DNA of 64,000 bases from an uncultured Puniceicoccaceae bacterium. Lineage in GTDB: Bacteria; Verrucomicrobiota; Verrucomicrobiia; Opitutales; Oceanipulchritudinaceae. Where the stretch lies: contig CAWVVV010000001.1 in assembly GCA_963933835.1 (NCBI GenBank), positions 192,001 to 256,000 on the forward strand, in the 5' to 3' direction. Position numbers: made by a program. Positions 48,001 to 51,000 of the stretch are shown here, piece after piece. How positions within the stretch are numbered: position 1 is the stretch's first letter; the number at the start of each line of letters is the position of its first letter.

Positions 48001-51000
48001 GTAAGGACCAAGGGCGATTCTAAGCCGCCGCAGGGCTTACATACTACCCGTCGGCTTCTCTAAGAGCGGGAACATAGCGCCCTTCCGGAAGATAGTTACT
48101 TGGCCCGAGCTAGCGCTCAGTAGAATCGCTACACAGTCAGCCGCGAGCGAGACCGAGGCCGCTGCAGAGTGCCGAGCGCCAAACCCGCTAGGAAGCTCTT
48201 GATGGAATTCCAACGGAGCGTGGATCAAGCTTCCAGCTGATTCCATCACCCCATCACCTCGGATAATAAAGCAACCATCCATCTGGGAAAACTCCTTGAT
48301 CGTCTCATCCATGAATGGATTCAGGATGTTGCGATCCTCCTCCTTGTATCCGAAAAATGGATTCATCACGAGCGGCTTGGACATCCCAATCACATTCTCT
48401 GAGTCGCCAAGGACGAACAATGTGCCGATCGCGTGGCCTTCACGTCCTTCGATCGATAGCTCTGTCGCGATCGCGATGATGCGCTCCATGACCTCCACCT
48501 TCACCGAAGTCGGCAAGAGGTGATTCCCTTTATCGATCACTTTCTGAAACTCGCGCTCGATATCAATGACCATGAGCGTATCGAGAAGATTGCTTCCAGG
48601 CAGGCCTCCTACACAGCAGATGCGGTCGGAGTATTTAAACAGTCCACGCGTAAGCCCGATGAGAATCGCGCTACGGGTCTGAGAAAGGCGCGCCGCAGAA
48701 TAAGATCGAACTTCGATCACACCCTCAACCTGCCGGCCTTCGATACGGCGATCTCCGCCACGTGTGACGACGATCGTTCGGTGCTTCGGAAAAGTCTCGG
48801 TCATCTCGACCCCGCTGGCAAAGGTATCGCTAAATATGACGACAGCGGCGGCACCGGTGTCTTGAGCTACCTTTTCAGCTTCTTTGATGAAAAGTCGGTT
48901 AAGCCGACTCTGGCCGCGCTCTGGTTTTGCCAGTTGGGCACCAAAACCCATCAGCACACGGTCTTTAAATTTCTCTGTATTTTCCGCTTCGAAGATCTGT
49001 TGAACCAGATCGCGATCCCTAAAGAGGCGCGCGAGCGAAGCGAGGGCGTTCAGATAGTTGCTTTCTTTGTCCGAAGCGAGGAGGAGGAAAATCAGCCGTG
49101 ATTCCTCATAGTCATTAACCGTGTCATGGGTCAGACCCGTCTTCGTGCGTCCCACCGCAAAGATGTAGCGCCGCTTCATCTTGATACGCATGTGCGGCAT
49201 GCCGACACCATCGCCCAGATAGGTCGCCATCGTCGTCTCGCGATTCAGGAGAGCGCGAGAGATTTTCTTAGCGCTCAAGGTGCCAGGCATCCGCTTAAGG
49301 GCAACCTGAACGAGTTCCTCAAGAGCTCCTGAAAGGTCGGAGCTCTCTAACTCAATAATTCTTGAACGAGCAATGAAGCGGTCTAATCGCATCCGGGGTA
49401 AAGATGAAAAGAAACACTGCCCACGATTCGGTCAAACCGAATTGTGCCCAGATGCACAGAAAAATTACGCTAGCTTACTTTTCCCAATCCAAAGCGCCTT
49501 TTTTCAACTCGTAGTAAAGACCTACGACAAGAACGCCAAGGAACGCCATGATCGGGAAAAAGATAGGAAGTCCTTGAGAAAGGAAGTCGCGATAAATCAA
49601 GACCCAAGGGATGAGGAAGACGACTTCGATATCGAAAAGGATAAAGAGCATCGCTGTTACATAAAACTTAATACTAAAGCGTGCTCCCGGAGTGCCTTCA
49701 GCCGCGACACCGCATTCGTAAGCGGAATCCTTAAACTTATTCGTCGGGCCCCGCTGCCCCATCAGATGGCTGACCAAGAGCACCGCCCCAGCGATAAACA
49801 AAGCGAGTAATACTTGCACTAAGACCGGAAGGTAATCTGCGAGCTCTTGCGTCATATCTCTACTGACGAAAGCCGCCCACCACTCCATGGCGAGTCGATT
49901 TTGCAAAAAAACAGCCTAGAATGGGGAAGACCCTCGGCAAAATTCAGGGCTTCACGACCTTGAGGCGAACCTCTTCGAAGAAGGCAGCCCCCAACTGTAA
50001 ACTAGCGCTATAGTCCAAAATCGGCAGAAGTATACCGAGCGAACGGAAGCCCCAGCGCTCTCTCCGAGCGTTCAGCCGCTGAAGGATGAGTGCATCCAAA
50101 ATGACCGGATCGACCGCGAGCCAAAGCTTCGGCTCCGAATCCGTGTAGAGAGAATTGAATGAAGGTCCCCCTACAAACTGATACGACTCCAGTGTCATGA
50201 GCGTAAAGGCCCACGTATCGAGGAGCTCGGGAATCGCAGCAATCTCTGCGGTCGCTACCGGTGCGTTGTTCGGGCTGACAAAAAAGCGGGAGCGGTTCGT
50301 CACATTCCAAAGTGTAGCGTTCACGAGCGCTCCATTCACTCCAAGGGTCGGGTGATCGGTCACCATGGGGAGATTGATCCAGAAATCGAAGGACGTGAAG
50401 ATCTTTCCCGGCATCCGACTCTTTCGCTGTTGATCTCGGGCGACATCATCACGCCCGGGTTGAAATATCGCCCGTGCCAGCCCCGAAGTAAAATCTAGAG
50501 GCACCGGGCTGTCATATTCCCAGCCATCCGCCAAAAGCTCGCCTGAATCAATTGAAACAACGGGCACTCCATCGAAGCTCGGCGTCGAGTCCCGTTCAGA
50601 GCGCAGCGGATAGTAACCCGCATCCCGCAGCTGACTGTTCGAAGCATCCACGATCAATAAGCGATCGCGCGAAAATCCGCGCTTCACGAGCGCAGCGATG
50701 ACAGCTCGCGTGAGCGAGTGCGGCGTATCTAGCCCTGGGCCTGAGTTCGTGTAGATCTTGATGGCCGCTCGACCATGCACTGAAGGCGCAAGCGACTTAC
50801 CTGTATCCTCTTCAAAATTGGCCATCAGTGCTTCGACCGAGGCCTGATACATCTGCTCCGAAAAACTCACCATGGGAGCTTCCCAGACCACACCGTTCCA
50901 GTTCTTCCGCTCCCCCTCAAAACCCCATACGCCCGCCGATGCACACGCGGCCATAGCGCAGAGCCCGATCAGGCTAACGAGAAAAAATGGGGGATGGGAT

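Follow-up and report, generated by a model that had tools for sequence, protein, structure and literature searches.

In other bacteria, c-di-AMP governs the transport of K+ and osmolytes and, to our knowledge, the signals that set its synthesis are largely open, with regulatory inputs not known for most cyclases. One class of diadenylate cyclases, DacD, has what we take to be its defining feature in an EIIA domain. The class nomenclature reportedly goes back to Corrigan & Gruendling 2013. In Braun et al. 2019 (PMC6741144), cyclases of Opitutales are listed as DacD under the names Lacunisphaera, Puniceicoccaceae bacterium, Coraliomargarita and Opitutae bacterium, and Galperin 2023, as reported by citing papers, sorted cyclases into 22 families. 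Archaeal DacZ of Haloferax volcanii is described in two sources (PMC6741144, PMC10249747) as an essential, Mn-dependent cyclase linked to the osmotic response. The proteobacterial PTS(Ntr), a regulatory relay without transporters, has outputs that concern K+ homeostasis according to a 2026 review (PMC13104625); there, TrkA, KdpD and the exporter YcgO are given as targets of E. coli PtsN in its unphosphorylated form, and the phosphate of the relay is without a known acceptor.

The window, a stretch of 64,000 nucleotides from an uncultured Puniceicoccaceae bacterium (C1:192001-256000), carries at 48037..49392 on the minus strand a gene (g00237) whose ORF encodes 451 aa, all features of which are given below on the same strand. 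The EIIA – PK_C-like DacZ_P – DAC architecture proposed for it in an earlier note was borne out by three Pfam domains above their cut-offs: an EIIA(Ntr)-type receiver at residues 14-143 (48964..49353; PTS_EIIA_2, PF00359, 8.1e-19, 68.5 bits against a cut-off of 27), a PK_C-like alpha/beta DacZ_P domain at residues 168-283 (48544..48891; PF21755, 2.9e-9, 37.1 bits against 27.4) and a catalytic DAC domain at residues 313-439 (48076..48456; PF02457, 1.5e-17, 63.7 bits against 27). The PK_C family itself scored 22.9 bits, under its cut-off. An AF2 model (pLDDT 91.5, pTM 0.77) was compared with known folds in Foldseek, which matched the DAC domain to DisA, CdaA, DacM and CdaM, and the EIIA domain to the EIIA(Ntr) structures 1a6j, 2a0j, 3urr and 4gqx as top matches (target TM 0.77-0.84); the top PDB sequence match of the EIIA domain was likewise E. 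coli PtsN (1a6j, 7.9e-7). Homodimer prediction for the full-length protein returned a score of 0.31 against a mark of 0.42. Judged by its domain content, the enzyme is a soluble DacZ-type diadenylate cyclase, in which DacZ_P precedes DAC and an EIIA(Ntr)-type receiver forms the N-terminal part.

The succession of a PK_C-like domain and DAC is shared with archaeal DacZ / CdaZ (DacY; H. volcanii, M. jannaschii), whereas the present cyclase has an additional N-terminal EIIA domain and carries the DacZ_P variant in the middle; the haloarchaeal DacZ equivalog NF041371 (NCBIfam) gave 99.2 bits against a cut-off of 430. Class DacD resembles it in taxa, in that related loci of the cyclase bear names found on Braun's list. 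Both the architecture (EIIA, PK_C-like, DAC) and the taxon fit this class, of which the gene is a probable member with no apparent structural difference. The architecture itself is not new, given that databases already contain the fusion, that Opitutales cyclases appear in the DacD list (Braun et al. 2019) and that a Pfam model of DacZ_P exists.

In PtsN, we take the phospho-acceptor to be H73 within a G-x-G-[IV]-A-x-P-H motif, and R57 to be the upstream arginine. The EIIA phospho-histidine motif previously proposed for the cyclase is present, with GDGVGMPH(67)MR aligning with GNGIAIPH of E. coli PtsN (1a6j), which places the candidate phospho-acceptor His67 at 49192..49194; the tripeptide NR51E aligns with TRE of the same structure, so that R51 (49240-49242) corresponds to the PtsN arginine. 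Both codons were checked. Conservation was assessed in an alignment of 81 sequences sharing 28-48% identity. Although mean column conservation across the EIIA domain was only 0.42, its best-conserved positions were R51 (75/81), E52 (78/81), P66 (79/81) and H67 (76/81). This supports an intact, strongly conserved EIIA(Ntr)-type phospho-histidine site. The equivalent of PtsN H120 is Tyr113, and a tyrosine was found there in all 72 order genomes examined, whereas 52 of the 81 sequences in the alignment of distant relatives have a histidine. As for the DAC domain, whose catalytic motifs we presume to be those named DGA and RHR, the corresponding segments are D372-G373-C374 (48271-48279) and R407-H408-S409 (48166-48174). 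D372, G373, R407 and H408 were invariant in all 81 aligned sequences. The third residue of the DGA motif is Ala in 77/81 sequences and C374 of this cyclase is the single Cys (1/81), close relatives having C or G; the S409 position is variable (A 43, T 14, R 6).

Upstream on the same strand, at a distance of 82 bp, lies a nuoA-like gene (49475..49906; Oxidored_q4, 8.4e-31), which directly precedes the cyclase in 71 of 80 related loci, followed by a conserved gene of 358 aa (49944..51020, minus strand) with no Pfam or NCBIfam match, found upstream of the cyclase in 54 of the 80. On the downstream side, PEP carboxylase, a 105-aa HTH ORF and MatE adjoin the cyclase in none of these 80 loci, and a functional link between cyclase and PEP carboxylase was rejected because the neighbourhood is not kept in any of them. 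A promoter and terminator scan of 47400-51300 yielded sites no more frequent than in shuffled sequence.

The source genome (1.94 Mb in 10 contigs, 97.35% complete) was searched with profiles in six frames, which confirmed the PTS inventory described earlier. The cyclase is the sole DAC-domain gene (one match), and there are exactly two PF00359 matches, one on the cyclase gene and one at C2:263366-263785. HPr and HprK gave one match each, and EI one match over the cut-off (563 bits), two further rows of the EI profile belonging to one PEP-utilising paralogue below it. HPr keeps both its His and Ser sites (motifs GLHARPA and NGKSIMG), HprK/P is full-length with N and C domains, and EI, at 586 aa, consists of the three PEP-utiliser domains alone and lacks a GAF domain. 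The EII search covered PTS_EIIC (PF02378), PTS_IIB (PF02302), PTS_EIIB (PF00367), EIIA-man (PF03610), EII-Sor (PF03609), EIIC-GAT (PF03611) and PTS_EIIA_1 (PF00358), its scope ending short of the sorbitol-type families, PTS_EIIC_2, EIID and PTS_IIA(lac). The absence of EIIB and EIIC was upheld within this range, PF02378, PF02302, PF00367, PF03609 and PF03611 having no match at E<=0.1 in this genome; at the same threshold PF03610 had zero matches in the 97.35% complete assembly, and PF00358 gave one 13.5-bit match, far under its cut-off. A relay of EI, HPr and HprK/P without a transporter thus stands as proposed.

The second EIIA domain is fused to an antiporter, again as the earlier note had it: g00805 encodes 759 aa with Na_H_Exchanger at 35-403, TrkA_N at 417-500 and PTS_EIIA_2 at 606-745, and is named an NhaP-type antiporter by JGI. 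Comparable fusions recur among PTS_EIIA_2 matches, which include NhaP/Kef antiporters, KdpD N-terminal domains and SulP. Antiporters with RCK domains are also known as targets elsewhere, YcgO (CvrA) under PtsN in E. coli and CpaA under c-di-AMP in S. aureus. The present NhaP-type exchanger resembles them in its TrkA_N domain but has the EIIA within the transporter chain and no detected TrkA_C (RCK_C), which means that c-di-AMP binding by this antiporter cannot be deduced. Paired TrkA_C domains are carried by four other proteins of the genome, and the c-di-AMP riboswitch RF00379 was found nowhere in it.

With proteobacterial PTS(Ntr) the system shares its character as a regulatory relay without transporters and an Ntr-type EIIA, by sequence and by fold. 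It departs from it in that both EIIAs are fused to effectors, whereas PtsN is free-standing; in that EI lacks the N-terminal GAF domain of EI(Ntr); and in that phosphate is carried by an HPr that has a Ser46-type site and is accompanied by HprK/P, instead of by NPr. The hprK gene sits behind lptA-like and lptB genes, an arrangement reminiscent of the lptAB-rpoN-ptsN locus of PTS(Ntr). A second-messenger cyclase as output is a further difference, and the 2026 review (PMC13104625) contains no mention of c-di-AMP, diadenylate or fused.

Of 8000 proteins scored as homologues of the cyclase, 1900 reached E<=1e-3. Each of the 120 among the matches listed has the three Pfam domains within a length of 415-467 aa, in agreement with what had been noted before; their source records assign them to Opitutales, Puniceicoccaceae or Verrucomicrobia and call them either 'PTS sugar transporter subunit IIA' or 'diadenylate cyclase'. 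Among distant full-length relatives, a taxon was available for 2 of 10 clusters, Puniceicoccales and Spirochaetota. DacZ_P-DAC forms without EIIA are common as well: among the best 150 representatives, 45 are 260-340 aa long, and many of them align to the query from about residue 160 onwards only. The earlier note's counts among relatives were not reproduced exactly; in the order, a cyclase match was obtained in 96 of 101 sampled genomes, so the EIIA-fused enzyme is the ordinary diadenylate cyclase of Opitutales and the present gene a plain member. An apparent naturally split cyclase gene in one genome (G315) was dismissed because both pieces stop at contig ends. PF00359 was detected in 93 of the 101 genomes, with exactly one match in 69, and in 68 of those 69 a coordinate comparison placed this match on the cyclase gene; PTS_EIIC occurred in just 3 of the 101. 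The earlier statement that there are only two EIIA domains therefore applies to the source genome but not as a general pattern, the antiporter fusion being patchy across the order, where genomes generally have one EIIA, located on the cyclase.

EI was absent from 17 of the 101 order genomes, 15 of which have the cyclase. All 17 EI-less genomes measure 0.8-1.1 Mb, except G322 (1.3 Mb, 64% complete). Among their 15 cyclases, the EIIA domain is deleted in three, H67 is replaced in five (N, N, C, Y, Y; no Asp/Glu phosphomimetic) and R51 in five more, leaving both residues intact in two and His67 kept in seven. In EI-bearing genomes, 73 of 78 cyclases have H67 and 69 of 78 have R51 as well as H67, and the small genomes with EI (G331, G369, G332, G317) all retain H67. 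D372, G373, R407 and H408 were intact in every cyclase compared, with or without EI; cyclases without the EIIA domain or a phosphorylatable histidine thus persist with intact catalytic residues. The alignments accordingly support decay of the EIIA site or domain in EI-less relatives while the catalytic residues stay. Such decay after loss of EI supports a real PEP/EI/HPr input, as predicted, and the comparative pattern suggests that the receiver truly depends on the phosphorelay.

This support is limited, as the loss of EI amounts to about two independent events. On the gene tree of the cyclase, EI-less genomes cluster and EI state changes only twice, leaving just two independent contrasts, for which a sign test is impossible; their grouping might stem from a single loss in an ancestor or from long-branch attraction. 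Parsimony assigned five changes of His67 to the EI-less subtree (length 11.15) and two to the EI-bearing subtree (length 29.87), a difference in rate with a rough binomial p of 0.019. The general erosion of genes in tiny genomes confounds the comparison, and tree length and the intact state of the catalytic residues control for it only in part. His67 has also been lost despite EI and HPr in two lineages, to Y in f64 (G304, G373, G337) and to N and S in f7 (G195, G276), and HPr was not found in three genomes (G024, G310, G325), although EI and an intact EIIA site are present there.

We consider the best explanation to be a transporter-less sensory relay that controls the cyclase via His67, with the unphosphorylated form active, and would assign this a probability of roughly 0.6. 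For the phosphotransfer, we infer a route in which PEP would phosphorylate EI, EI would phosphorylate HPr on its histidine and HPr~P would phosphorylate His67 of the cyclase, with phosphorylation of HPr on Ser by HprK/P throttling the flow of phosphate. The phosphorylation state of EIIA would then set cyclase output. Given that DAC domains must pair for c-di-AMP synthesis, EIIA and DacZ_P would presumably change how they are held, and we somewhat favour a sign in which the unphosphorylated form is cyclase-competent and phosphorylation lowers activity. Through the second EIIA, on the NhaP-type antiporter with TrkA_N, the relay may address cation/proton exchange in parallel. Control of K+ and osmotic balance would be the presumed output of c-di-AMP in this organism, by analogy with other bacteria.

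The sign could also be the opposite, with phospho-His67 switching synthesis on and the unphosphorylated enzyme providing basal activity only. Conservation of the site and its dependence on EI fit this equally well and no result here fixes the sign; EI-less lineages, whose cyclase branches are long, may live on basal activity or on compensating changes. We nevertheless regard it as unlikely, in view of the 15 EI-less genomes that keep cyclases with D372, G373, R407 and H408 intact, three of them without EIIA, of the lack of any Asp/Glu substitution at position 67 and of the many DacZ_P-DAC enzymes that do without an EIIA domain. Still less probable in our judgement is that EIIA acts without phosphorylation, as a dimerisation, docking or ligand-binding domain whose R51/H67 pocket binds a metabolite or partner protein. 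Such a role would accommodate f64 and f7, in which position 67 is Y, N or S but the domain, EI and HPr are kept, as well as the seven EI-less genomes that retain His67, and it has a parallel in E. coli PtsN, which, according to PMC13104625, works via protein contacts and has no known phosphate acceptor. It sits poorly with the finding that the conserved residues are exactly those aligning with the phospho-histidine motif and arginine of PtsN and that deletion of the domain or decay of the site occurs mostly where EI is absent; moreover, 68 of the 101 genomes, with EI and HPr, would have a relay without any visible EIIA.

In sugar EIIAs, a second histidine is needed for onward transfer of phosphate. 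This bears on the possibility that signalling runs in reverse or that phosphate is passed on, EIIA being a sink or donor that tunes HPr~P or phosphorylates another acceptor. HprK/P does give HPr other possible outputs, and the antiporter EIIA would compete for HPr~P in the family of this organism; with the tyrosine fixed at the H120-equivalent position in 72/72 order genomes, and with no EIIB-like acceptor found in the source genome (PF02302, PF00367), we hold such a flow to be very improbable. Returning to the relay that ends on the cyclase, the chances are about even that the PTS of Opitutales as a whole has shrunk to a single-output sensory relay, in which the c-di-AMP synthase would be the sole EIIA-type terminal acceptor and the PEP/pyruvate ratio, via EI, together with the metabolites sensed by HprK/P, would set c-di-AMP directly through His67.

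A literature search of titles and abstracts returned no description of a PTS-diadenylate cyclase fusion, and the terms DacD and c-di-AMP together retrieved Braun 2019 alone; Galperin 2023 and Corrigan & Gruendling 2013 may state the same reading. The value of the present analysis lies in the comparative pattern, namely a sole EIIA domain situated on the cyclase and a phospho-site that decays following the loss of EI. If the proposed control is true, a PTS phosphorelay would for the first time be seen to end on a second-messenger cyclase itself, and PTS(Ntr)-like systems would gain a new kind of output. Synthesis of c-di-AMP would then have a defined physiological input, one that couples carbon and energy state directly to the messenger that governs K+ and osmolyte transport elsewhere.

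The cyclase is encoded by a single open frame of 451 residues at 48037–49392 on the minus strand of the window, and the EIIA–DacZ_P–DAC architecture claimed in the earlier note was confirmed, with three Pfam domains above cut-off on that strand: PTS_EIIA_2 (residues 14–143; 68.5 bits), DacZ_P (residues 168–283; 37.1 bits) and DAC (residues 313–439; 63.7 bits). A PK_C match on the middle domain fell below the Pfam cut-off. Scoring 99 bits (cut-off 430) with the NCBIfam equivalog for haloarchaeal DacZ, the cyclase is DacZ-like rather than a DacZ. Its AlphaFold2 model, computed with an 85-row alignment, was confident (pLDDT 91.5, pTM 0.77). 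The predicted N-terminal domain most closely resembled the EIIA(Ntr) structures 1a6j, 2a0j, 3urr and 4gqx (TM 0.77–0.84), with a sugar-type EIIA ranking behind these four, and the C-terminal domain matched DisA, CdaA, DacM and CdaM. By sequence, the closest solved relative was E. coli PtsN. In the pairwise alignment, GDGVGMPH67 of the cyclase fell on GNGIAIPH of PtsN, the histidine of which we take to be the phospho-acceptor H73, and the upstream R51 fell on the arginine of TRE.

Site conservation was assessed in an alignment of the query with 80 full-length representatives of 28–48% identity (81 sequences). The only EIIA positions conserved at 85% or above were L27, R51, E52, A64, P66, H67, G81, G86 and L117, with counts of 75 for R51, 78 for E52, 79 for P66 and 76 for H67. 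Mean conservation was 0.42 in the EIIA domain versus 0.65 in the DAC domain, and judged from these sequences it is at the candidate phospho-site that the former is conserved. The position aligned with PtsN H120 was histidine in 52 of the 81 sequences; the query and 72/72 order genomes have tyrosine there. Invariant residues of the DAC domain were D372, G373, R407 and H408. The residue after RH varied (A in 43, T in 14, R in 6; S in the query), so that 'RHS' is normal for the cyclase family. C374, in place of the alanine of the DGA motif (48271–48279, minus strand), was found in one of the 81 sequences; among the five closest relatives of the query, itself DGC, the motif reads DGC or DGG, and elsewhere in the order it is DGA, with a single DGS (genome G045).

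The window's own assembly (1.94 Mb in 10 contigs, 97.35% complete) was searched in six frames. The window maps to positions 192001–256000 of contig C1, not to a start at contig position 224001 as had been claimed. In line with the earlier note, the genome held two matches to PF00359 (PTS_EIIA_2) only, a sole DAC match, and one each of EI, HPr and HPr kinase. HPr (92 aa) carries the His site GLHARPA and the Ser site NGKSIMG, HprK/P is full length, and the one true EI copy (586 aa) is without a GAF domain. At E ≤ 0.1, no match was obtained for PTS_EIIC, PTS_IIB, PTS_EIIB, EIIA-man, EII-Sor or EIIC-GAT, which bears out the claimed absence of EIIB and EIIC for the corresponding families at this level of completeness; PTS_EIIA_1 gave a 13.5-bit match alone, at chance level. 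The second EIIA does sit, as proposed, at the end of a 759-aa antiporter (Na_H_Exchanger 35–403, TrkA_N 417–500, EIIA 606–745), in which the P-H pair was invariant in 94 of 94 aligned family members and a second histidine (H711) present in 92 of 94. Immediately before hprK stand an lptA-like gene and lptB (ABC_tran), with dnaA after it (fetched locus L012, 2483–4933, contig C4), an order reminiscent of the proteobacterial lptAB-rpoN-ptsN neighbourhood. A low-molecular-weight phosphotyrosine phosphatase gene follows the EI gene, with a PP2C phosphatase gene on the opposite strand (L011, 5723–7045, contig C3), and the HPr gene is convergent with a gene for a PPK2 polyphosphate kinase of two domains (L010, 4512–5987, contig C2).

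The three-domain form is widespread in Opitutales. A word-index search with the cyclase returned 1900 proteins at E ≤ 1e-3, and all 120 listed matches had the same three domains at 55–92% identity. Exhaustive searching of 50%-identity representatives gave 3195 matches at E ≤ 1e-3, of which 268 reached E ≤ 1e-30; among the best 150, 80 were of full three-domain size (425–490 aa) and 45 of 260–340 aa, many of the latter aligning only from about residue 160 and thus representing DacZ_P-DAC without EIIA. Across the phylum, sampled with 301 genomes, full-length copies occurred in 6/6 genomes of the window's family, in 55/57 other order genomes and in 3/238 outside the order (G004, G008, G104), together with one partial match there in a longer frame. 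The best 80 species-genome loci were nearly all titled Opitutales, Opitutaceae, Puniceicoccaceae, Coraliomargarita, Lentimonas and similar; Polaribacter and Akkermansia bin titles among them are probably binning or labelling errors. One distant representative carries the name Spirochaetota.

Within an order sample of 101 genomes, the cyclase was found in 96, PF00359 in 93, HPr in 85, EI above cut-off in 83 and PTS_EIIC in 3. Exactly one PF00359 match was present in 69 genomes and, with coordinates compared by eye, lay on the cyclase gene in 68 of these, at least 56 of which are EI-positive; in the exception (G192, lineage f7) the EIIA is free (185 aa) and no cyclase was matched. The antiporter fusion (frames of about 745–790 aa) was confined to the window's family and a few others. 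In general, then, the order carries EI, HPr (with HprK) and the cyclase, a sharper statement than that of the earlier note. Three genomes (G024, G310, G325) have EI and an intact EIIA site, yet no HPr was found; it may have been missed, unassembled or too diverged, G024 being 99% complete.

EI was absent from 17 of the 101 genomes, all of 0.8–1.1 Mb except G322 (1.3 Mb, 64% complete), and the cyclase was present in 15 of the 17, where the site was read by tblastn on fetched loci. In all three f89 genomes the EIIA domain is gone, with no PF00359 match anywhere. H67 is replaced by Asn, and R51 by Lys, in two f67 genomes (G307, G374), by Tyr in two of f63 (G303, G372) and by Cys in one of f76 (G343); it is kept alongside a changed R51 in two further f67 genomes (G338, G357; His and Lys), two of f63 (G336, G355; Ser) and one of f91 (G352; Gln). 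Both residues are intact in f76 genomes G316 and G362. The EI-positive comparison set comprised 78 cyclases (72 newly fetched, 5 fetched earlier and the query), of which 73 kept H67 and 69 kept both R51 and H67, the five exceptions at H67 having Tyr in lineage f64 and Asn or Ser in f7. Genomes of these two lineages (G304, G373, G337 and G356; G195 and G276) keep EI and HPr with such a residue at position 67. H67 was retained in the small EI-positive genomes (G331, G369, G332, G317). Every cyclase examined, from EI-less and EI-positive genomes alike, had its catalytic D, G, R and H intact. One in-frame stop each was seen in the cyclase genes of small genomes G307 (L013, TAG), G374 (L016, TGA) and G317 (L090, TAA), which could reflect early pseudogenisation, sequencing error or recoding.

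After EI loss, the EIIA site has been lost repeatedly and in different ways. The number of independent events was judged on a tree of 93 rows computed from the DacZ_P and DAC columns, with EIIA columns left out, using IQ-TREE in quick mode. It grouped f63, f67, f76 and f89 at the base, so that EI state changes only twice, leaving two independent contrasts and making a sign test impossible; this clade may be real, reflecting one ancient EI loss, or may be due to long-branch attraction. Parsimony placed five His67 changes on the EI-less induced tree (length 11.15) versus two on the EI-positive one (length 29.87), with a rough binomial p = 0.019 for at least five of seven events being EI-less. 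Resting on parsimony over a gene tree with seven events, the comparison is suggestive support, short of proof, for His67 being functionally tied to EI/HPr.

A lone nuoA-like gene (49475–49906, minus strand) lies 82 bp upstream of the cyclase on the same strand and is conserved in 71/80 loci, preceded by a same-strand gene (49944–51020, minus strand; 54/80 loci) for a 358-aa protein whose N-terminus is hydrophobic and which matched no Pfam or NCBIfam family. The nuoB gene lies on another contig (C2, 434323–434652), so that throughout the order nuoA seems detached from the rest of the complex I genes and paired instead with the cyclase gene. Downstream, the genes for PEP carboxylase, the HTH ORF and MatE were conserved beside the cyclase in 0/80 loci, and promoter-like and terminator-like sites around it were not above shuffled-sequence frequency. 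A c-di-AMP riboswitch was not found in the own genome, which encodes four proteins with paired TrkA_C domains, possible c-di-AMP receivers. Matches to the antiporter tail include metagenomic proteins (P0373, P0381, P0377, P0374 and P0376) in which EIIA_2 is fused to the N-terminal domain of KdpD (Usp present or absent), to SulP or to Kef-type exchangers, which suggests that this EIIA type is recurrently partnered with K+ and ion transport.

The earlier note had read the system as a PTS rewired into an ion-homeostasis switch, and this reading is supported in part. Of it, a phosphorelay input into the putative cyclase is likely (probability about 0.6), and its sign and ion-homeostasis output are what we infer. 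Non-phosphorylatable cyclases (those of EI-less genomes, His-less variants and EIIA-less forms) persist with intact catalytic residues, so predicted cyclase activity seems not to need phospho-His; no acidic replacement of His67 occurred among EI-less cyclases. We lean towards phosphorylation of EIIA lowering cyclase activity, in which case the unphosphorylated form would be the active one, as with E. coli PtsN: according to a 2026 PTS(Ntr) review (PMC13104625), TrkA, KdpD and the exporter YcgO are acted on by PtsN in its unphosphorylated form.

None of the words c-di-AMP, diadenylate, Verrucomicrobia and fused occurs in that review, and the literature searched contained no account testing or discussing PTS control of a diadenylate cyclase. 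Pfam already has a DacZ_P family, the appendix of Braun et al. 2019 (PMC6741144) classes Opitutales proteins as DacD, and Galperin 2023, according to papers citing it, sorted diadenylate cyclases into 22 families. The gene is an ordinary member of an already catalogued class; the cyclase as the only EIIA in most of the order, and the pattern of EI loss and site decay, are not in print as far as we have seen. If control through the relay is borne out, it would provide c-di-AMP synthesis with a physiological input that is defined.
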